A stretch of 64,000 bases of DNA from Alienimonas californiensis (GCF_007743815.1 NZ_CP036265.1:4149059-4213058), one strand, 5' to 3'. Shown: positions 3,708 to 32,906, counted from the first letter of the stretch. The notes: generated by a model from the sequence alone, not told the origin. Program-made: numbers and translations.

Positions 3708-5405
3708 CTACTGTTCCCGAAGCGGGCAAGTGTTTGGCAATGAAGCGTCCAACTCGGCGAGAGCGGGTCGCAGGTGCCGTCCGTACCGCTCGACCGCCTC
3801 GAACGCCGCTGACCACGGCCGGGACGAGTAATGGCGGAACAGCAGTGGACCCGAGGGGTGCGGGCTGCCGTGGCAGAGGACCGTGTCGTTGACCTCGGCG
3901 GGCACGCCCGCCTTGGTCGCCCAGCCGCTGAACTGCTTGCGGACCGTGCCGAACGGGAGCCTCGGGACAGCGCCGCCGGCCTTTTCGCAGCGGGTACGCT
4001 GGGCCGACCAACGCTTCGCCACGAGGGACTGGGCGTTCTTCAGGGCCGTCCTGCCGCTGCCGCCGTCCCGGTAGAGCGGTCCCGAGTCGACGACCAGGAC
4101 CCGCGATCCGTCGGCCGGTGGCGACCCGTTGCGTACTGTTTCGGATTCTCGCCATCCGTTCAACAGGGCGGCGGTTTCCCGCCATAGCGGCCACCACCCC
4201 GCGACGCCCGATTTCGCACGTACGAACCCCGCCCACCCGTGCGACGAATCCGGCACGTCCAGTCCTTCGCCCGCCCATGGGTGCGGCCCCGGCGGGTACA
4301 GATGGCCCCAGGTCAGACGGCCGACTTCCGCCGCCCCGCCGGCGAGGTTCAGGCCGAGGACCAGCATGAGCTGGTCCAGAGCGTCTCCGTGGCGGAGCAG
4401 CTTCGCGAGTTCGTCGTTTGTGAACGTTCGAACAACACCGGTGCCAGTGGCGGCCCGCTCGGCGGGGGTATCGGCGTCGACCTTTCGGTTGAGGCGGGGC
4501 AGGTCGGCGGGTTCCCGCCACCCGCACTCCCCGTCGAGGTGCATCCAATTCAGAGCCAGCATCAGTTCGGCGACCATCTGCCGGGCCCGCTTCACCGTGT
4601 ACCGCCCACCGCGTCGGCTCTCGGGGCGGGCCCGCCAGAAGTCGATCATTGCCCGGCACGCATCGAGGTCCAAGGCCGCCAGCGGCGTGTCCGGGTGCCG
4701 GGCGATCAGCTGCCGGACTTTCGCGTGCCGGTCCGACGCTCCGCGAGCCTCCGCCTGCACGGCGGCGAGGTAGCGGTTGAACTGCTCGTGCAGGGTGCCG
4801 GGTACTGAGACGGGAGCAGCCGGATTCTTCACCACCGACGCCGCTCCCATCACAACCGCCGCCGCCGGGGCGAGGTCGTTCGGCGGGGGCGGGACCTGTT
4901 CGCCGAGTTCGACCAGTTTCGCCGCCGACTGGTATCCCGCCTTCACGCCCATCTTCAGCCGACGAACGACCCCTGCTCGATCACCGCCTGGCCGGTCGGC
5001 CTCGTGTAGCAGCAGGTCGGCGGGAATGTGTCGGGCCAGTCGGCTACGCACCGCCGCCCGCACCTGGGCCTCCCGGGGCTTCGACAGGACGTCCGGCGGC
5101 GCTCCGTCAGGGACTGGACCGAACGGATTGCCGGCGGCCCGATACGCGGCGGGACTGACGTCGATCAGCTCCCCCTGCCGCACGGACTCGGCGATTTCGA
5201 CCGCCAGCGGGCTCCACTCGCCGAATGCTTCGTGGACCGTTCGCAACACGTCCCGCCGCCGGGCCGCTTCAACCTGCGAGACCTCCCGCGGGAACGTGAA
5301 CTTCCGCCGCGATCCTGCCGGTCCCACCGAGACCTGACAGCGGCCTCTGGAGTCCGGCTTGGGCAGCCCCGTCTTGCGGGAAGCGGCGGGTTTCGGAGCA
5401 GCCAT
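3708..5405 (-). CDS. Tyrosine-type site-specific recombinase/integrase-like protein (about 566 aa, atypical)
   Basis: N-terminal MAAPKPAASRKTGLPKPDSRGR... from the ATG near 5405. Contains core-like segments (AEVGRLTWGHL, FVRAKSGVAGWWPLWRETAALL). The C-terminal segment VRKQFSGWATKAGVPAEVNDTVLCHGSPHPSGPLLFRHYS loosely aligns to the HxLRHTFAT...LGH...Y region but is degenerate (H of HxxR absent). Lies immediately 3' of ssrA, the classic island integration site. The ORF-track start at 5549 is probably upstream of the true start. Confidence 0.6.
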   Translation of the reverse strand: MAAPKPAASRKTGLPKPDSRGRCQVSVGPAGSRRKFTFPREVSQVEAARRRDVLRTVHEAFGEWSPLAVEIAESVRQGELIDVSPAAYRAAGNPFGPVPDGAPPDVLSKPREAQVRAAVRSRLARHIPADLLLHEADRPGGDRAGVVRRLKMGVKAGYQSAAKLVELGEQVPPPPNDLAPAAAVVMGAASVVKNPAAPVSVPGTLHEQFNRYLAAVQAEARGASDRHAKVRQLIARHPDTPLAALDLDACRAMIDFWRARPESRRGGRYTVKRARQMVAELMLALNWMHLDGECGWREPADLPRLNRKVDADTPAERAATGTGVVRTFTNDELAKLLRHGDALDQLMLVLGLNLAGGAAEVGRLTWGHLYPPGPHPWAGEGLDVPDSSHGWAGFVRAKSGVAGWWPLWRETAALLNGWRESETVRNGSPPADGSRVLVVDSGPLYRDGGSGRTALKNAQSLVAKRWSAQRTRCEKAGGAVPRLPFGTVRKQFSGWATKAGVPAEVNDTVLCHGSPHPSGPLLFRHYSSRPWSAAFEAVERYGRHLRPALAELDASLPNTCPLREQ

Positions 5406-5603: not shown

Positions 5604-5610
5604 TCAGTGG

Positions 5611-5965
5611 AGGCGGGGGGAATTGAACCCCCGTCCTGCGAACGCTGAGCCGAAGCCTCTACGTGCGTAGTCCTTTGATTGATCTTACGTCGGCCGGTTC
5701 ATCGGACAAAACCGGTTCGACGCCAGCCCACCACGGGGTTCGCTTCATCAGTAGCGGGCGCTGGGATGAAGCTAGTCGGATTTGTGACCGACTTTCAGGC
5801 GCCTCCGACGTGGCCCCTTCAGTCGGCACGGTCTAGGGTTACTAGGCCGCGAGGGAGAACTGCGGTTTGGCAGTCATCGTTGTGATCGGCTTTTTACGAG
5901 GCCAACCGATCAACCTCGGCACGCCACCCCGACCCGAGACGGACCAGTCGAATCCGATCGCCCCC
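5611..5965 (-). ncRNA. ssrA: Transfer-messenger RNA (tmRNA, SsrA), about 355 nt
   Basis: On the minus strand the 5' end is GGGGGCGAUCGGAUUCGACUGG and the 3' end is ...GGGGGUUCAAUUCCCCCCGCCUCCA (T-arm GGGGG-UUCAAUU-CCCCC). The 7-bp acceptor stem GGGGGCG/CGCCUCC has a G3:U70 wobble, the alanine identity element. An internal tag reading frame ends ...GCC AAA CCG CAG UUC UCC CUC GCG GCC UAG UAA, i.e. ...AKPQFSLAA followed by a double stop. CCA is not genome-encoded. Confidence 0.85.
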
Positions 5966-6098
5966 GGTACGGCGTGACCCGGAACCGCCCGCGACGTTCG
6001 CACGCGGCTCCGAACACGTCCCTATTATCGCACAGCACGCAGCATCGTCAAGAGGGGAACGCGGAGGCCCGGCCGGGCCTCCGCGATACGAACCTGAC

Positions 6099-7206
6099 TT
6101 AGCCGTTGGAGTTCTTCTTCACCGTGTATTGGTGGTTCCGCTTGGAGACCACCTCGGCGTTCTGGATCTCGTCGCCGATCTGCAGGCTGTCCACGACTTC
6201 CTGTCCTTCGATCACCCGGCCGTAGACGGTGTGCTTGCCGTTGAGGTGCGGGGTGGGCAGGTGGGTCAGGAAGAACTGGCTGCCGGCCGTGTTCGGACCG
6301 CTGTTCGCCGCGGACAGGGTGCCGCGGAAGTGCTTGCGGGCGCCGGGGTTATTGAACTCGCTGTCGATCGCGTAGCCGGGGCCGCCGCGGCCGTCGTCGG
6401 TGGGGTCGTCGTTCTTGGAGTTCGGGTCGCCGCCCTGAGCCATGAAGTTCGGGATGACGCGGTGGAACTTCACGCCGTCGTAGAAGCCGCTCTCCACCAG
6501 CGTGATCATGTTCGCGACGGCGTTAGGGGCTTCCTCTTCGAACAGTTCCAGGGTGACGTCGCCCTTGGTGGTCTTGAAGACGACGCGGGGCAGATTCATC
6601 GAGGCCTGCTTCTGGCGGGTCGCCTGCTCCTGGGCCCAGAACTGGGCGTACTCCGGGGCGGCCTCGGCGAAGCTGGCGAACTGGGGGAGCAGCACGCCGG
6701 CGGCCTCGGCCTTGGCGAAGTTCTGCTGCGCCTCAGTGAACTTCTGCAGGGCGAACTGCGACGCCGGCAGCAGGTTCAGGCCGATGCGGTTCTGCGGGGC
6801 GGTGGCGAGCAGCTTCTTGGAGAACTGCTCCGCGTTGGCGTAGTCGTTCTCGCCGAAGGCGTTGGTGGCGGCCCAGACGGCGACCGACTCGCTGAGCTGC
6901 GGGGCGGCCTGGGCGGCGGTCATCAGCGCGTTCCGCTGCTGGACCACGTTTGTCTGGAAGTCCTTGAAGAGCTGCTCGCCCTCCGCCTCGATCTGCTTCT
7001 TCCGGGCCTCGTCGGCGTCGCGGTACTGCGTCTGCAGTTCGACGACCTTCTCGTCCAGGGCCGTCTCGCGGGCTCGGATCGCTTCGAGTTGGGCGTCAAG
7101 ATTGCCCTGGGCGAACGCCGTCGGGGCCGGGAGGCCGGCGACGCAGACGGCGAGCAGCGCCGCGGTCAGCAGTCGGCGAGAGCGCGGCTGGAAGGAGAAA
7201 CGCATG
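6099..7206 (-). CDS. Peptidyl-prolyl cis-trans isomerase, cyclophilin type, with signal peptide and coiled-coil N-domain
   Basis: C-terminal FHRVIPNFMAQGGDP...GRVIEG cyclophilin signature. Signal peptide MRFSFQPRSRRLLTAALLAVCVAGLPAPTAFAQ. Start ATG mapped at 7206-7204; the longer track ORF 6099..7310 has an implausible N-terminus. Confidence 0.85.
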
Positions 7207-7334
7207 AGCGGTTTGGATCGGTCGAGAGGTTCGGGGGGATTCGGTGGCCGATGCTGACCGCCGACCCGGGCTCCGTCAACGGGGCGGACCCGATGGTCTC
7301 CCGCCAACACTGGGGGACGCCGCCGGATCGCCGG

Positions 7335-8507
7335 TCAGAACCGGGCGACTTGCCGCAGCGTAATCAAGCCCCAGGCGCCGATCAGCAGGTTGCCGACCCA
7401 CACCGTCCAGCGGGGGTCGGCGTCCCCGTGCTTCGCCAGGTTCAGCATCCCCAACGTGATCGGGTAGTACACCAGCAGGATCGGCACGAAGCAGATCATG
7501 AAGGTGGTTAGGAAGCTGCTCCGGCCCAGCTTGATGCTGAACGTGCCGCCGATCAGGGCGAAGAACAGGCAGCTCGCCGCCATCGCCGGCCGGGAGTAGA
7601 TCTCCGTGAGCACCTTGTATTCGGGGATGCGCACCTTCGTCGGCGCCGGCGGGGAGGGCGCCAGTCGGTCCGGCCGGGGGAGTTCGCCGAGCATGAGGTC
7701 CAGCGTGGCGACCGCCGCGGCGTGTCGCTCCCGGGCGGCGGTGTTCTCCCGCAACAGATCGAGTTGGCGGAACAGGTCGGTGGTCGTCCGGTGGCGGGGC
7801 TTCGTCTCCTCCTCGGAGTTGCCCAGCGGGAAGGAACGCACCTCCCGTTCAAAGTAGCCGTTGACCCGCCCGCCGGATTGGAGCAGGCCGTGGTGCATCT
7901 CCACCCGCACCACGTTCTCCTCCAAATCGAACGAGACGTTGGCCCGCTCCGCGGTGACGGTGACGGGGCTGCGGCCGGCCGGGGCGTAGCGGAACTGCGG
8001 GCCGATCAGCGTCTTGCCCTCCACCGCCCGGGCGGTGATCATCAGGCCGCGCTCCGGGTCGCTGAAGCGATTGGTCGTGCGGAGGAAGTCCAGGAACAGA
8101 TCCTCCATCGCGTCGGAAACGATCTTCTGGATATTCGCCATCGCCCACGGGATGACGCGGTCGGTCAGCACGAAGCTGGAGATGCTGAGCGCCGCGGCCA
8201 GCAGGAACGCCGGGGCGAGCAGCGTGAAGACGTGGGCGCCCGCGGCCTTCGCGGCGATCACCTCCTGATCGCCCCCCATCCGGCCGTACACGATGCAGAC
8301 GCTCAGCAGCAGCGTCGCCGGGATCGTGAATGGCATCAGCGACGGCACGATGTACGGCAGAATCTGTGCGATCTGCTCCGCCCCCAATCCTTCCTCGCTG
8401 GCCCGCTGGGCGACCCCCACGAACACCAGCAGGATCGTCAGCACCGCTAGCAGGAAGCCGAACACCCGCAGCAGTTCCCACAGAATCGCCCGTTGGATCA
8501 ATCGCAA
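7335..8507 (-). CDS. LptF/LptG family LPS export permease (YjgP/YjgQ)
   Basis: N-terminal LRLIQRAILWELLRVFGF is the typical LptF/G start. Six hydrophobic segments around a large periplasmic domain. Start assumed to be the TTG near 8507; the upstream part of track ORF 7335..9011 is Arg/Pro-rich and non-coding-like. Confidence 0.75.
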   Translation of the reverse strand: MRLIQRAILWELLRVFGFLLAVLTILLVFVGVAQRASEEGLGAEQIAQILPYIVPSLMPFTIPATLLLSVCIVYGRMGGDQEVIAAKAAGAHVFTLLAPAFLLAAALSISSFVLTDRVIPWAMANIQKIVSDAMEDLFLDFLRTTNRFSDPERGLMITARAVEGKTLIGPQFRYAPAGRSPVTVTAERANVSFDLEENVVRVEMHHGLLQSGGRVNGYFEREVRSFPLGNSEEETKPRHRTTTDLFRQLDLLRENTAARERHAAAVATLDLMLGELPRPDRLAPSPPAPTKVRIPEYKVLTEIYSRPAMAASCLFFALIGGTFSIKLGRSSFLTTFMICFVPILLVYYPITLGMLNLAKHGDADPRWTVWVGNLLIGAWGLITLRQVARF

Positions 8508-8838: not shown

Positions 8839-9339
8839 GTGCCCGTCGTGTCGAATCGTCCGCGTCCCTTTCGCTCCCTCGGCCTTCGTACGCTGGCGCT
8901 GGGGGCGCTCCTCGCCGCGGCGTTCACGGCGGGCCGACTGTCCGACGGACCCCTCCTGCCGGTCGCCGGGGCGCAGCAGGACCCGGTCGACGATGCAATC
9001 GTCATCCGCATGAAGCAGGGCTACGAGGCGCTGCGGCGGGCACAACTCGCCCTGGAGCAGTCCGGCCACTACGTGCCCGCCGCCAACGGCGTGAACGCCT
9101 TCGTGACGTTCGCCGGCGGATACGACGTGCTGACCTCGCTGGAGAACGGCCGCGGCGTCGACCCGGAGACCTATGCCGCCCTCGAAGCCGGCTTCGCCCC
9201 CCAAGCCGTGCTGAGCGAACTGGGCCGCGACGGCTCCGGGCGCCTCACCTACAAGAATCGTCTCGTGCGGCTGCTCCCGAAGGAAACGCTGCGGGCGATG
9301 TACCTGCGGCGGGCCGAGGTGCTGGGCGAATCGCTCTGA
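8839..9339 (+). CDS. Hypothetical secreted protein (signal peptide LRTLALGALLAAAFTAG)
   Basis: ORF with an N-terminal signal-like segment and balanced composition. No family recognised. Confidence 0.4.
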   Translation: MPVVSNRPRPFRSLGLRTLALGALLAAAFTAGRLSDGPLLPVAGAQQDPVDDAIVIRMKQGYEALRRAQLALEQSGHYVPAANGVNAFVTFAGGYDVLTSLENGRGVDPETYAALEAGFAPQAVLSELGRDGSGRLTYKNRLVRLLPKETLRAMYLRRAEVLGESL

Positions 9340-9665: not shown

Positions 9666-11267
9666 ATGTCGCTCCGCTCTCGCCGCCCGCTCCCGGGCCT
9701 GTCGTCTCCGGTATTCGGCCTGCCGCGATTGGTTCGCCGAGCCCTGCCGCTGGCCTTCGCCGCCGCCGTCGTCGCCCTCCCCGCCGCCTCCGGGCAGGAC
9801 GGGCTGGCCGCCCCGCTGGAGCAGCAGGAACTCGAGGCTGAGTTGGGCGACACCGATCAGACGGACGAAATCTTCGACGACGGCAAGGAACGGGACGTTC
9901 CCAACGTCACCGGCACCCTGGGCGATCCGGCATCCGAGGACCGGTTCTCCGGCGACCCGCAAACCGCCCAGGACGCCGACGTCGACCTGATCACCCGCGA
10001 CGCCTCGGCCGCCCGCGACATCGTCGCTCAGTCCTTCGATCGGCAGGTGGTCCGCACGGAGCAACTGGCGACGGCGGTCGGGCAGGCGATCGACGCCACC
10101 CGCACCTACGCGGCCCGCAACCCGGATCTGGCGATCGTCGAACTGAAGCAGGCCCTGCTGAGCGTTCAAACCGCCGAGGACGTCAACCCGGTCGTGCGGG
10201 CGCAGCTGGAACGCCAGTTGGAAGCCGAGATCCAGCAGTCCCGCAACCTGTCGATCCAGGCCGCCGAGAATCGGTTGCTGGTTCAGGTGCGGGAATCCGA
10301 GGAGATCGCCGCCCTCCGCGCCCTCGAGGCGCTGCGGACCGAAGAGGAAAACCTCGAACAGCTGATCGATCAGGTGCGGGCCTCGATCGACGACGCGGTG
10401 CACGGCGACGACTTCGCCTACGAGGAAGCGGAAGACTTCGCCCGGGCCGCGGTGAACCTGCGTCCCGGCAACATGCCGGCGACCGCGGCGGTGTTCACGT
10501 CCGAGGCGGCCGGTCAGCTCAACAAGGCGTTCCGCCTGCGGAGCATCCGCAACGACCGCTTCCTTGAAACGCTGTACCAGGTCGAACTGAGCCACGTGCC
10601 GTTCCCGGACGAGCCGCCCGTGCGGTTCCCGGCGGCGTCGGTGTGGGAGGAACTCTCCCGTCGCCGGAAGGCCCGCTACAGCGCGGTGAGCCTGCAGGCG
10701 GACAGCGCCGCCGAGGAGCGGATCCGGTCGGCGCTCGATCAGCCGACCAGCCTCGCCGGCCTGCGGCCGGGCGACACCCTCGCCGAGGCCCTCGACACCC
10801 TCGCCGGCATCCACGAGATCACAATCCTCCCGGACACCCCGCGGCTGGAGCTGGAAGGCGTCGACCTGCGGGACCTGCCGCTTGAGAACCCGCCGGTGCT
10901 CGAAGGGGTGAAGCTGAAAAGCGCCCTCAAGTTGCTGCTGGAGTCCGTCACGGACGTCCCTCTGACCTACATCGTCGAGGATGAGGTGATGAAGATCACC
11001 ACCGTCGACTATGCGGAGGAGAAGCTGTTCACCCGCGTCTACCCGGTCGGCGACCTGGTCATCCCGATCATCTCCGGCGGCCTCGGCGGCGGCCTGGGGC
11101 AAGCTGTGGGCGGCGGCATGGGCGGCCAGGGCGGCGGCATGGGCGGCCAGGGCGGCGGCGGCTTCGGCGGCCAGGGCGGCGGCGGCTTCGGCGGCGGCGC
11201 CTTCAGCCTGCCCCCGGAGAATCTGCGGACCCAAGACGGCGCCGACGCGGAAAAAAAAAGCCGCTGA
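9666..11267 (+). CDS. Secreted protein: long acidic coiled-coil region, an STN-like (secretin/TonB short N-terminal type) domain, and a C-terminal Gly-rich tail (GGLGGGLGQAVGGGMGGQGGGMGGQGGGGFGGQGGGGFGGG)
   Basis: Signal peptide RRALPLAFAAAVVALPAASG. The segment LAEALDTLAGIHEITILPDTPRLELEGVDLRDLPLENPPVLEGVKLKSALKLLLESVTDVPLTYIVEDEVMKIT resembles the STN domain consensus. The ORF stops just after an A9 tract at 11251-11259. Confidence 0.6.
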   Translation: MSLRSRRPLPGLSSPVFGLPRLVRRALPLAFAAAVVALPAASGQDGLAAPLEQQELEAELGDTDQTDEIFDDGKERDVPNVTGTLGDPASEDRFSGDPQTAQDADVDLITRDASAARDIVAQSFDRQVVRTEQLATAVGQAIDATRTYAARNPDLAIVELKQALLSVQTAEDVNPVVRAQLERQLEAEIQQSRNLSIQAAENRLLVQVRESEEIAALRALEALRTEEENLEQLIDQVRASIDDAVHGDDFAYEEAEDFARAAVNLRPGNMPATAAVFTSEAAGQLNKAFRLRSIRNDRFLETLYQVELSHVPFPDEPPVRFPAASVWEELSRRRKARYSAVSLQADSAAEERIRSALDQPTSLAGLRPGDTLAEALDTLAGIHEITILPDTPRLELEGVDLRDLPLENPPVLEGVKLKSALKLLLESVTDVPLTYIVEDEVMKITTVDYAEEKLFTRVYPVGDLVIPIISGGLGGGLGQAVGGGMGGQGGGMGGQGGGGFGGQGGGGFGGGAFSLPPENLRTQDGADAEKKSR

Positions 11268-11368
11268 CCGACGCTGAGGCGACCCCAGACGACGACCGCC
11301 CGGTCGGGACCCCCTCCCGCCCGGGCGGTTCCGCGTCTGCGGCGCCCGGGTCCGAAGGAGGGGGGACC

Positions 11369-12700
11369 GTGGCCCCGGCCGCTCTGCCGGACGGCATGGC
11401 GGAGGGACTGGAGATCGACCGCAAGTTCTCTCGCCAGATCCGCCAGCTCAGCCGGGCGGGCGAGAACGAGACGGTGATCCGCCTGCTCCGCGAACGGATC
11501 GACGCCGGCGAGGCCCGCCCCTGGATGTTCGAGGTGCTCGGCCTGACGTTGCAGTTGACGGGCGCCGACGAGGAGGAGGTCGCCGACGCGGTGCTCGGCG
11601 GGTTCAGTCCGGAGGCCGCCGACCCCCCGGCACTGCTGGCCGCGGCGACCTACATGCACCAGTTGGGCCTGGATCGTCGGGCCGTCGAACTGTGTCAGCA
11701 GGCCTCCGAGGCGGCCCCGGACGCCGCCAAGCCCTACGGGATGGCGTTGGAGATGGTCGCGCCGGACCAGCGTCCACTGGACGCGATCTGGGCCGCCGCC
11801 GGCGTGTTGCGCACCGCCTGGGGCACCCGGGCGGAGCCGGCCCGGGAGCGGGCGGAGTTGATCGCGGTCTCCGCGTTGCGGGAGCTGCGTCGCCGCGGCG
11901 ACGCAGCGGCGTTGGCCTCGGCGAACGCCCAACTAGCCGACGCCCAGCGGGCCGACCTGATCGTCCGCGTCCGCTGGAGCGGCGACGCGGACGTGGATCT
12001 CACCGTGACCGAACCCCCCGGCACCGTGACCGGGCCGACCGTCCGTCGCAGCGCCGCCGGCGGCGTGCTGGTGCGGGACGGCTTCGGCCCCGACCGAGCG
12101 ACCGCCGTCGAGGAGTACCGCGCCCCGGTGGCGTTCAGCGGGGTCTATCTGCTCGATCTCGGCCTGACGACCGGGGAGCCGGTCGGCCAACGGGTGCGGG
12201 TGGAGGTCGTGCGGCACTTCGGCTCGCCCTCCGAGAGCGTGGAGGAGTTCACGGTGCCGTTGAAGGCCGTGCACACGCCCGCCCTGATCACCCTCCGCGG
12301 CGGACGGCGGGTGAGCCTGACCAGTGTCGACGCCGACGCCCCGCCGCCGCGGGCCCGCCGCCTGCGGCTGGCCGACCTGACCGATCAGGGCGCCGGCGTG
12401 GCCAGCGGCCGCGGCTTCGGCCCGCCGCCCGGGGTGAACAACCAGATCACCGCGGGGGGCGGTTCGGTGGGCTATCAGCCGAACGTGCAGCTGATTTCCG
12501 AGGGCATCGCCAGTTCGGCGACCGCCGTCGTCAGCGCCGACCGCCGTTACGTGCGGCTGTCGCTGGCCCCGCAGTTCACGAACGTGATCGACGTATTCAA
12601 CTTCACCTTCGCCGGCACGAACACCGGCGTGAGCGGCGGCGGCGGAGGCGGCTTCCCCCCCGCCGGCGGCGGCTTCGGCGGCCCCACCCCGGGCAACTGA
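11369..12700 (+). CDS. Hypothetical protein with helical N-region and a Gly-rich tail (GGGGGGFPPAGGGFGG); probably the second half of a split gene (see the A9 finding)
   Basis: GTG start at 11369. The C-terminal region contains VGYQPNVQLISEGIASSATAVVSADRRYVRLSLAPQFTNVIDVFNFTF. It is in the +1 frame relative to the upstream ORF, with no stop between 11252 and 11369 in that frame. Confidence 0.5.
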   Translation: MAPAALPDGMAEGLEIDRKFSRQIRQLSRAGENETVIRLLRERIDAGEARPWMFEVLGLTLQLTGADEEEVADAVLGGFSPEAADPPALLAAATYMHQLGLDRRAVELCQQASEAAPDAAKPYGMALEMVAPDQRPLDAIWAAAGVLRTAWGTRAEPARERAELIAVSALRELRRRGDAAALASANAQLADAQRADLIVRVRWSGDADVDLTVTEPPGTVTGPTVRRSAAGGVLVRDGFGPDRATAVEEYRAPVAFSGVYLLDLGLTTGEPVGQRVRVEVVRHFGSPSESVEEFTVPLKAVHTPALITLRGGRRVSLTSVDADAPPPRARRLRLADLTDQGAGVASGRGFGPPPGVNNQITAGGGSVGYQPNVQLISEGIASSATAVVSADRRYVRLSLAPQFTNVIDVFNFTFAGTNTGVSGGGGGGFPPAGGGFGGPTPGN

Positions 12701-31148: not shown

Positions 31149-32852
31149 ATGTTTCTCCCGCCGCTCGCCCAGTTTGAGGGCGAATCGAACGCGATGCTGT
31201 ACGTCGGCTTCGCGGTCGTCGCCGCCGCCCTCGTCGCCTTCACCCTGCTGATGTTGGTGGTGAAGCGCTATAAACGCTGCCCGTCGAACCGCGTGCTGGT
31301 GATCTACGGCAAGACCGGCGGCGCCGCCGAAGAGGGCCAGGGGCAGGCCGTGAAGTGTCTGCACGGCGGGGCGAGCTTCGTCTGGCCGCTGATTCAGGAC
31401 CACGACTACCTCTCGCTGGACCCGATCCAGATCGAGATCCCCCTCCGCGGGGCGCTCTCGATGGAAAACATCCGGGTCAACGTGCCCAGCGTGTTCACGG
31501 TGGCCGTCGGCACGACGCCGGAACTGATGACCAACGCCGCCATCCGCCTGCTGGGGCTCGGCACCGAGGAGATCAAATCGCAGGCCCAGGAGATCATCTT
31601 CGGCCAACTCCGGCAGGTGATCGCTTCGATGCGAATCGAGGACATCAACCGCGACCGGGACACGTTCCTCTCCCACGTGCAGAACAGCGTGGAGCCGGAG
31701 CTGCGCAAGATCGGCCTGGTGCTAATTAACGTCAATATCACGGACATTCAGGACGAGTCCGGCTACATCGACGCCATCGGCAAGAAGGCCGCCTCGCAGG
31801 CGGTGCAGACGGCCCGCGGCGACGTGGCGGATCAGGAGAAGCTCGGCGAGGTCCGCGTCGCCGAGGCCCAGCGGGAGCGGGAGATCGCCGTCGCCGTGGC
31901 GAACAAAGAGCGGGAACTGGGCACCCGCGGGGCCTCCCGCGACCAGGCGATCGGCGTGGCGGACTACGAGCGCGATCAGGCCGTCGGCGAACAGCGGGCC
32001 CAGTTCGAACGCGACGTGCAGGTCAAGGAAGCGGAGCGCGAGAAGCGGATCAAGAACGCCCAGGCCGACGCCGCAGCCGTCGCGGGCGAGAACGAAGCCG
32101 CCGCCCTCGTCGCCGCCTCCCGTGCCACACTGGGCGTGAAGAACGCCGAGGCGTACCAGCTCGCCGAGACCCGCAAGCGAGAGGCCGAGGCCGCCGTGCA
32201 GGAGGCCGCCTTCCGGGCGATGACGAAGGCCGCCCTCGCCGAGGCGGAGAAGGTCGAAGCGGAGCAGCGGGCCGAGCTGGAGGCCCACGCCAAGGCCCAG
32301 AAGGCGAAGCGGATTGTCGACGCCGAGGCCGCCGGCGAGCAGCGCCGCATCGAAGCCGACGCCGAGGCCCACGCGATCTTCGCCAAGTTCGAGGCCGAGG
32401 CCCGCGGTCAGTACGAGATCATGGCCAAGAAGGCCGAGGGTCTGGAGCGGATCGTGGCGGCCTGCGGCGGCAGCGACAAGGCCTTCCAGATGTTGATGCT
32501 CGAACACCTGGACGCCCTCACGGAGGCGTCCGCGAAGGCGATTTCGAACATCAAGTTCGACAAGGTGGTCGTCTGGGAGGGCGGCGGGAAGAACGGCCAG
32601 AGCAGCACCGCCGGTTTCCTGCAGAACATGGCCCGCACGCTGCCGCCGATGATGGAGGTGATGCGCGACGTCGCCGGCATCGAACTGCCGGAGACGCTCG
32701 TGAAGCTGGCCGAGGACCGCGACGAAGCGGCGCAGAAGGGCGCCGACAAAGCAACCCAGCGAGCGACCGCCGGCCCGCCGCCGCCGTCGAAGAACGGCCC
32801 GGCGAAGGCGGAGCCGACTCCTCAGCCGCAGTCGAAGCACGGCGACGGTTAG
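31149..32852 (+). CDS. Flotillin / SPFH (band 7) family protein with long Ala/Glu-rich coiled coil (YqiK-like)
   Basis: N-terminal TM, SPFH region VIYGKTGG...VKCLHGGASFVWPLIQDHDYLSLDPIQIEIPLRGALSMENIRVNV, then an extended EA-rich flotillin coiled coil. Alternative start at about 31194 (MLYVGF). Confidence 0.85.
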   Translation: MFLPPLAQFEGESNAMLYVGFAVVAAALVAFTLLMLVVKRYKRCPSNRVLVIYGKTGGAAEEGQGQAVKCLHGGASFVWPLIQDHDYLSLDPIQIEIPLRGALSMENIRVNVPSVFTVAVGTTPELMTNAAIRLLGLGTEEIKSQAQEIIFGQLRQVIASMRIEDINRDRDTFLSHVQNSVEPELRKIGLVLINVNITDIQDESGYIDAIGKKAASQAVQTARGDVADQEKLGEVRVAEAQREREIAVAVANKERELGTRGASRDQAIGVADYERDQAVGEQRAQFERDVQVKEAEREKRIKNAQADAAAVAGENEAAALVAASRATLGVKNAEAYQLAETRKREAEAAVQEAAFRAMTKAALAEAEKVEAEQRAELEAHAKAQKAKRIVDAEAAGEQRRIEADAEAHAIFAKFEAEARGQYEIMAKKAEGLERIVAACGGSDKAFQMLMLEHLDALTEASAKAISNIKFDKVVVWEGGGKNGQSSTAGFLQNMARTLPPMMEVMRDVAGIELPETLVKLAEDRDEAAQKGADKATQRATAGPPPPSKNGPAKAEPTPQPQSKHGDG

Positions 32853-32906
32853 CGCCGCCCGGGGCAGGCGGTCTGCACGGGACACAACCCGTGCAGAGCC
32901 CCCGCC

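Follow-up and report, generated by a model that had tools for sequence, protein, structure and literature searches.

An invariant run of nine adenines at a reading-frame junction in Planctomycetaceae: a probable programmed slippage site in a putative envelope-protein gene

Results

A run of nine adenines (A9) lies at the junction of two reading frames in a 64 kb stretch of the Alienimonas californiensis genome (GCF_007743815.1 NZ_CP036265.1:4149059-4213058; hereafter the window, from whose start all coordinates are counted), and a run of exactly this length has been retained at the corresponding junction in nearly all orthologous loci that we compared among Planctomycetaceae. The upstream frame, open reading frame 1 (ORF1), encodes 533 amino acids (aa), and a single extra A would fuse it with the downstream frame into a product of 1011 aa. 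From the comparison of these sequences, A9 is very likely a site of programmed recoding of one kind or the other, and with a probability of about two in three the mechanism would be programmed slippage of RNA polymerase, by which A9 becomes A10 in some transcripts and a short and a long isoform are made from one gene.

A run of nine adenines at the frame junction

ORF1, the 0-frame ORF that would give the short isoform from unslipped mRNA, occupies 9666..11267 on the plus strand, as delimited from the sequence, a structural model, and homologues. It reads GAA AAA AAA AGC CGC TGA across the run. The A9 tract, the presumed recoding (slippage) site, is at 11251..11259 (+; 0-frame phase G AA AAA AAA A GC) and contains, at 11252-11258, the heptamer A_AAA_AAA correctly phased for the 0 frame. 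The TGA that ends the short isoform (11265..11267, +) begins 6 nucleotides (nt) past the tract. The guanine-plus-cytosine (GC) content of the window is ~71%, and A9 is its only A run of 7 or longer, the second longest being A6; T runs reach a maximum of 6, and shuffling of the window gave an expectation of 0.05 matches to A8. In the six genes around the run, with the run itself excluded, lysine is encoded by AAG 39 times versus 4 times by AAA.

The downstream frame stands in the -1 (= +2) relation to ORF1. The mechanically listed ORF 11369-12700 lies in a frame that stays open from 10985, before the run, to 12700, and the -1-frame extension proper (11261..12700, +; 479 codons plus stop) would be joined to ORF1 by one extra A or by a -1 ribosomal shift. 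The fusion obtained by inserting one A has a computed length of 1011 aa and the junction ...DAEKKKPLTDAEATPDDDRPVGTPSRPGG..., which is also given as ...DAEKKKPLTDAE.... An earlier note, made from the window sequence alone, had placed the run and the ORF1 stop 6 nt further on at these same coordinates, had called such a run very unusual at ~70% GC, had seen no stop in the downstream frame from 11252 to 11369, and had written the junction after insertion of one A as DAEKKKPLTDAEATPDDDRPVGTPSRPGG; all of this agrees with our analysis. Its label '+1' for the downstream frame was wrong and the fix it proposed (inserting one A or deleting two) was right, and the fusion is longer than the ~980 aa that it had estimated.

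To compare loci across species, we scanned one genome per species (GTDB species representatives) with the ORF1-core alignment as the query and examined 80 loci out of the 434 genomic relatives found by the scan; all 80 belong to Planctomycetaceae. Subtraction of four paralogues (L017, L025, L040, and L042) and of two contigs that end early left 74 orthologous loci reaching the junction, 73 of which have a run of exactly A9 there. The window has the same A9 at this position, as do contigs of several marine metagenome samples. When all sequences were pooled, 76 of 77 carried A9, and no A8, A11, or further length was seen besides one A10. The distance from A9 to the 0-frame stop is 1-17 nt across the orthologues. 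Of the 71 loci in which the downstream part is present, 70 have it in the -1 frame. The comparison of orthologous loci, which the earlier note had suggested, revealed a common A9 junction and not consistently separate genes.

The loci in which the run is kept are widely diverged. They come from Alienimonas sp. DA493 (92% identity) and A. chondri (87%), and from Gimesia, Schlesneria, Fuerstiella, Maioricimonas, and many metagenome-assembled genomes (MAGs) at 41-51% identity. In the best-conserved 220 aa, pairwise identity has a median of 55% and a minimum of 41%, with 21 clusters at 70% identity, and the GC content of the loci ranges from 45% to 71%. Within Alienimonas, where synonymous divergence (dS) is 0.4-0.7, the flanks of the run have changed and A9 itself is invariant. 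Conservation is at the nucleotide level, despite the codon bias toward AAG, and holds in every codon phase. Elsewhere in the 897 kb of related loci, A9/T9 runs number just 3, versus 74 at the junction. These three, in L024, L026, and L069, were considered as further candidates and rejected, with no frame junction at any of them.

The same arrangement was found in the locus DNA of the short homologue P0108 (L001-L004; four marine metagenome samples, 58% GC), with A9 12 nt ahead of the stop and the downstream ORF in the -1 frame. When metagenomes were scanned by pattern for length variants in the marine L001 population, just two contigs were returned, both A9, which is too few to gauge polymorphism. 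As a separate observation on the flanks, C directly follows A9 in 79% of the 73 loci, and no locus has A at position -2.

Coding capacity of the downstream frame

Stop codons were counted between the run and the conserved core (mean interval, 274 nt) in 69 non-redundant loci. The -1 frame had zero stops in 68 of them, and its 4 stops in total all fell in one error-ridden MAG, versus 188 and 236 stops in the other two frames, which were stop-free in 0/69 and 1/69 loci, respectively. In many loci the -1 frame is closed shortly before the run, by a stop that lies 0-19 nt ahead of it or takes in its first A's, which confines the shift to the run. Against two Alienimonas species, the downstream part had a ratio of nonsynonymous to synonymous substitution (dN/dS) of 0.20-0.22 and ORF1 one of 0.19-0.23, and purifying selection on both halves is shown by these sequence comparisons. 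All linker indels among Alienimonas are multiples of 3.

Seen in the window alone, a gene interrupted at a homopolymer is just what a recent pseudogenising frameshift or an assembly error at the homopolymer would look like, and the earlier note had listed both. However, the same A9 is present in 73/74 species representatives and in independent metagenomes, among them two further Alienimonas isolates and ~70 species sequenced by different groups and on different platforms. The downstream dN/dS of ~0.2 equals that of the upstream part, and the linker indels and the stop-free -1 frame likewise speak against decay. We regard the chance of either explanation as negligible.

The two ORFs could instead be two separate genes, the downstream one using its own start or re-initiation, with A9 kept for another reason such as a KKK motif. 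The window does have AAGGAGG 7 nt upstream of GTG 11369 (11355..11371, +), where the mechanically listed ORF starts; annotation by gene callers splits the region into two genes in relatives; and one lineage is truly split. However, this start and its Shine-Dalgarno (SD) sequence are not conserved even inside Alienimonas, AAGGAGG-GTG being absent from Alienimonas sp. DA493 and A. chondri, and it is probably not a real start. No start codon for the downstream part is conserved across loci: the first possible start lies anywhere from 7 to 339 nt past the run, and the first ATG is often within the conserved core, yet the -1 frame is coding directly from the run. The linker after A9 is never hydrophobic (mean maximum Kyte-Doolittle score, 0.51), so a separately made downstream product would have no signal peptide, even though the homologous region belongs to an exported protein. 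A signal peptide was acquired in the truly split lineage, L083 (JBGSIP010000855, 1180-1700). It is the sole orthologue without an A run; its ORF1 stops directly after FFSIP at the Gly-rich end, and its downstream part has its own Met and a hydrophobic, signal-like N-terminus (MAGRWLISRTLAIPPGMVSVCFCCGLLIVTLAGLSVTAQAQ; Kyte-Doolittle score, 2.59). L083 is a genuine gene fission. A KKK motif, moreover, would mostly use AAG at 71% GC, and the run is not always in the KKK phase. Two independent genes therefore seem quite improbable.

Homologues support the view that the two window ORFs are one ancestral protein, split at A9, whose halves a slip of one base would rejoin. With the fused sequence as query, 835 relatives were retrieved, almost all from planctomycetes, most of which are single proteins of 1300-1400 aa that cover both window halves. 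For several of them, a single high-scoring segment pair spans as much as 88% of the fused query (P0003, P0007, and P0010 are examples), with E-values down to 1e-161, which indicates that the window ORFs are halves of one protein. In Pirellulales, which are distant relatives, the gene encodes one uninterrupted protein of ~1350 aa and has no A run. The 14 proteins nearest to ORF1 (46-51% identity; 820-920 aa) terminate after the Gly-rich linker, and all of them end in KKK or KKN plus 0-6 residues; this lysine run in the linker is mostly absent from the more distant, uninterrupted proteins. The proposal of the earlier note that one protein is split by A9 is borne out by the unsplit distant homologues and by the coding capacity of the -1 frame from the run.

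Slippage at transcription or at translation

The codon phase of A9 differs among loci (53, 8, and 12 loci in the three phases), and its length is always 9. In phases 1 and 2 (20 loci), two A's fall outside the X_XXY_YYZ heptamer and are still kept; the constraint is not confined to the 7-nt motif, all 9 A's being retained in each phase. In phase 0, no locus has G as the last base, and the variant A_AAA_AAG never occurs. Among the 73 loci, no conserved hairpin or SD-like motif was found flanking the run (mean z -0.06 upstream and -0.74 downstream). The window has a GC-rich hairpin at 11286-11339 (CCGCCCGG...CCGGGCGG; z -2.85 for a 141-nt stretch), which starts 27 nt past the run and is nearly invariant in the three Alienimonas sequences. 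No equivalent was seen in other genera, and this hairpin could be a mere reflection of the conserved peptide RPVGTPSRPGGSAS.

Runs of 9 A or T are enough for efficient slipping of bacterial RNA polymerase in vivo, and the RNA:DNA hybrid measures 9-10 bp (PMC5009743). On A/T runs, single-base insertions predominate, and slippage rises exponentially with run length (PMC5574713). Poly-A cassettes from Mg-chelatase genes in Escherichia coli reporters gave 10% frameshifted product with A7, 40% with A9, and 63% with A11 (PMC3711429).

The locus L064 (WGME01000006, 7188-7196) provides a further distinction. Its A9 is present, and its downstream part is in the +1 frame owing to a 4-nt difference right after the run. 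This relation needs A8 or A11, which slippage can supply and -1 frameshifting cannot.

We favor slippage because nine A's are kept in all three phases while a -1 shift needs seven bases, because nine is both the length of the RNA:DNA hybrid and a run length for efficient slipping, because no hairpin or SD-like stimulator is conserved, and because L064 requires A8 or A11. Of the four candidate explanations in the earlier note, transcriptional slippage was the one that best fitted the orthologue comparison. We infer that the slip takes place at transcription rather than at translation, and likewise that the products stand in a ratio and that both isoforms are needed.

Programmed -1 ribosomal frameshifting, in which the mRNA would stay A9 and tRNA-Lys in the P and A sites would slip on A_AAA_AAA (11252-11258) to give the same isoforms, is a real though rather unlikely alternative. 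It agrees with the -1 position of the downstream frame in 70/71 loci. A phased A_AAA_AAA is available in every locus, since nine A's span all phases; both A_AAA_AAA and A_AAA_AAG are known to serve as shift sites in bacteria (PMC3711429; PMC4066793), and the window has its strong GC hairpin downstream. However, 7 bases would suffice for such a shift, yet 9 are kept in all phases, and in 20 of the loci two of these A's have no part in the heptamer. Nor does any locus have A_AAA_AAG, the best variant of the E. coli type. The 73 loci have neither a conserved structure at the usual spacing of 5-9 nt nor an upstream SD-like element; the hairpin in the window is 27 nt away and conserved in Alienimonas alone; and L064 requires a +1/-2 change. 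Some proven -1 frameshift sites have no known stimulators, and a missing stimulator weakens this explanation rather than excluding it. No tRNA-Lys gene was found in the 64 kb window.

Several points weigh against transcriptional slippage as the sole explanation. A9 holds an in-phase A_AAA_AAA whatever its phase, and a -1 ribosomal shift there would give an identical protein; slippage and ribosomal frameshifting may both contribute. L064 could, judging from its sequence, be a MAG error rather than a true +1 variant. In addition, the in-clade locus L005 (10667-10676; protein P0001) carries A10 and an uninterrupted ORF of 1394 aa.

This last locus bears directly on phase variation, in which replication slippage would toggle the gene between A9 (off, short) and A10 (on, full length) within populations. 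Homopolymers in genes of exported or surface proteins are the classic signature of contingency loci, and the L005 contig, with its A10 and intact ORF, could represent the on state. However, its name indicates 4x long-read coverage, and removal of one A gives AAC TGA and the canonical layout. P0001 is the only genuinely uninterrupted in-clade protein among 5.8 billion proteins. Contingency loci, moreover, differ in length among strains and are not conserved at ~50% protein identity, whereas the run here is exactly A9 in 76/77 sequences from 74 species representatives and independent metagenome samples. With a run length that is almost invariant across orthologues, the phase-variable locus raised by the earlier note appears very improbable.

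A second apparent fusion, P0002 (eukprot g22018.t1, residues ~860-870), was rejected as a true one; its sequence jumps from GQAFAQ to GQPWMYD, which is a gene-model artefact. It seems that a eukaryotic gene predictor modelled an intron over the A9 frameshift in a contaminant planctomycete contig. L008 and L070 were likewise rejected as exceptions, both being canonical locally; L070 has a scaffold gap upstream, and L008 has an extra upstream frame change. L078 shows many frame changes throughout.

Domain architecture and neighboring genes

Pfam and NCBIfam searches gave no significant matches on either window ORF, and because of this the domain assignments were taken from homologues and structural models. 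The ~1300-1400-aa relatives consist, in order, of a ~450-aa N-terminal part with VWA_3, a helical region, a small alpha/beta domain, a Gly-rich linker, and the part matching the downstream ORF; their helical and alpha/beta regions correspond to ORF1 residues ~120-470. Among 36 aligned family members, Pfam detected VWA_3 (PF13768) in 34 and STN (PF07660) in 13, as well as TPR, and the STN matches fall at the position equivalent to the alpha/beta domain of ORF1. The STN-like domain named in the earlier note thus finds no Pfam or NCBIfam match in the window protein itself and is borne out by the family matches and by the alpha/beta domain in the model. VWA_3 had no Pfam match in the window protein, and in tblastn the VWA regions of P0001 and P0108 had no match in the window, L006, or L007. 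The Alienimonas form is a VWA-less variant of the planctomycetal ~1350-aa 'VWA domain-containing protein' family. At the sequence level, the ~450-aa N-terminal VWA_3 region is missing from the Alienimonas orthologues (window 9666-9992, L006, and L007).

The ORF1 model begins with an N-terminal helix, which fits a signal peptide or an anchor, and a disordered acidic stretch. These precede a confidently modelled helical bundle at residues 110-340, a long, coiled-coil-like region within the conserved ORF1 core (9993..10685, +). The STN-like alpha/beta domain (residues 348-455; 10707..11030, +), assigned from the model, the alignment, and the Pfam matches of the family, ends in the invariant VYPVGDLVIPI. 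It is followed by a disordered Gly-rich tail, whose low-complexity linker of GGxGGQGGGGFGG repeats (11076..11201, +), also predicted to be disordered, is present in all family members.

In the model of the extension, a disordered linker leads to a TPR-like helical repeat domain (model residues 46-228; 11396..11944, +) and a beta-sandwich domain (model residues 231-345; 11951..12295, +) with a predicted local distance difference test score (pLDDT) >90. After a disordered stretch come the conserved C-terminal beta-hairpin (VSADRRYVRL...F.F), defined by model and alignment, and a second Gly-rich tail (together 12503..12697, +). In the alignment of the downstream part, R428, R429, Y430, V431, and P437 are invariant. 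A DUF2135 match in the extension was weak and sub-threshold, and fold searches with the models gave generic helical and TPR matches, nothing more specific.

The signal peptide, the STN domain, the neighboring genes, and a paralogue that bears a secretin domain point to the cell envelope as the location of the protein. All four paralogues have the helical/STN core and the Gly-rich linker in common with the family and differ from it at the C-terminus. The one with the secretin domain is L042, at whose end this domain is partial (PF00263, E 2e-16; 4227-4807). L040 has a different, unassigned C-terminal domain (6993-7634). L017 and L025 are second copies in the genomes of L013 and L012, respectively, and have no downstream part.

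The gene order around the locus is LptF/G, an ORF of ~170 aa, the recoded gene, TsaD, and a Ctp S41 protease. The P0108 loci have the downstream neighbors TsaD and the Ctp-type S41 protease in common with the window, and the window has the upstream LptF/G and ~170-aa ORF in common with L005. In the window, this small ORF (8839-9339, +; 166 aa), between LptF/G and the recoded gene, has no Pfam match, and its counterpart in L005 (172 aa) is unannotated. ARAGORN called a transfer-messenger RNA gene upstream of the locus (5607-6082, -; called length 476 nt; tag AKPQFSLAA) and a tRNA-Arg(TCG) at 32772-32867 (-), which at 96 nt is long for a tRNA.

Discussion

A working model of this locus would start from the template, in which exactly nine A's (T9 on the template strand) match the length of the RNA:DNA hybrid in RNA polymerase. 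Most transcripts would be copied as A9, and ribosomes would terminate 6 nt on to release the 533-aa short isoform, comprising the signal peptide, the helical bundle, the STN-like domain, and the Gly-rich tail. In a fraction of transcripts, the nascent RNA would slip back by one position and an extra A would be added. Ordinary translation of this A10 mRNA would then run into the -1 frame and produce the 1011-aa long isoform, which gains the linker, the TPR-like domain, the beta-sandwich, and the conserved C-terminal hairpin. Selection would keep the tract at A9, such that both forms are always made and at a set ratio.

The ancestral state was presumably an uninterrupted gene, as still found in Pirellulales and others. 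The A9 tract and the frame offset would have been gained in an ancestor of the sampled Planctomycetaceae and then kept by selection, and in at least one lineage gene fission may have been completed, the downstream part acquiring its own signal peptide.

Tentatively, these elements can be combined into one picture, which we hold to be possible rather than probable: A9 would be an obligatory stoichiometry device, slippage would fix the ratio of short to long isoform, and the isoforms would co-assemble in an envelope structure specific to planctomycetes. The tract would then have been kept from the ancestor shared by the sampled Planctomycetaceae onward, and the structure would be related to secretin systems, the same core ending in a secretin domain in the L042 paralogue. 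The isoform ratio might even respond to the supply of ATP or other nucleoside triphosphates. If this picture is true, few transcriptional-slippage sites in cellular, non-mobile bacterial genes would match this one in depth and strictness of conservation. To our knowledge, programmed slippage sites in non-mobile, non-viral bacterial genes are few, and most come from single species or strains.

By analogy, tssM1 of Citrobacter rodentium (tssM in Yersinia pseudotuberculosis) comes closest as a working parallel; there, as here, the gene of an envelope protein appears to be prematurely interrupted (PMC4256274). TssM1 is a membrane-complex protein of the type VI secretion system; slippage on its poly-A tract adds A's to give truncated and full-length forms, and both forms and their ratio are needed for function (PMC4256274). 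The tssM1 tract has 11 A's and is known from a few enterobacterial strains, whereas the tract here is A9 and family-wide, and the protein families are unrelated. Slippage in tssM1 has been proven experimentally, whereas the planctomycete case is built on comparison.

Thermus thermophilus dnaX resembles our locus in having a run of exactly 9 in a cellular, non-mobile gene that gives two products sharing their N-terminus (PMC5009743; PMC3711429). In that gene, however, the unslipped product is the long one (tau) and the slipped product the short gamma, the reverse of the arrangement here, and the product is cytoplasmic and acts in replication, unlike the exported envelope protein proposed here. 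The Shigella flexneri genes spa13, mxiE, spa33, and mxiA of type III secretion also combine slippage on A/T runs with an envelope-spanning apparatus, and slippage in spa13 yields a C-terminally extended product that makes up 25-30% of output (PMC5009743). They are plasmid-borne virulence genes of one genus, with other tracts and families, and the link to a secretion apparatus in our case, unlike theirs, is limited to the STN-like domain and the secretin-bearing paralogue.

Mg-chelatase-like genes (a GeneTack cluster) are likewise non-mobile genes in which a -1 junction coincides with a conserved poly-A run (PMC3711429), but their runs vary (7, 9, and 11) and they belong to another family and other taxa, whereas the run here is fixed at 9. 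E. coli dnaX shares the A-rich slippery sequence, the -1 shift, and two products at a set ratio, but uses a 7-nt A_AAA_AAG with an SD-like element and a hairpin, in contrast to nine A's in any phase with no conserved stimulator. We found no description of this site in planctomycetes in the literature; the GeneTack survey had two planctomycete genomes, and the gene was unreported there (PMC3711429). Read as slippage, the A9 locus is a further case among bacterial slippage sites, distinct in its strictness, its depth of conservation, and its phylum.

A fixed A9 in more than 70 diverged species is unusually clean comparative evidence that a 'broken' gene works as designed. For annotation, the consequence is that pipelines call two hypothetical proteins or a pseudogene at such a locus, and one eukaryotic gene model spliced the tract out. 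The locus is also a natural system at hand for testing RNA-polymerase slippage in a phylum whose gene expression has been little studied. It singles out a large, conserved, uncharacterised protein of the putative planctomycete envelope, both forms of which are likely needed. Since fused, recoded, and fully split arrangements occur in different lineages, the course of gene fission in this family can be studied directly.

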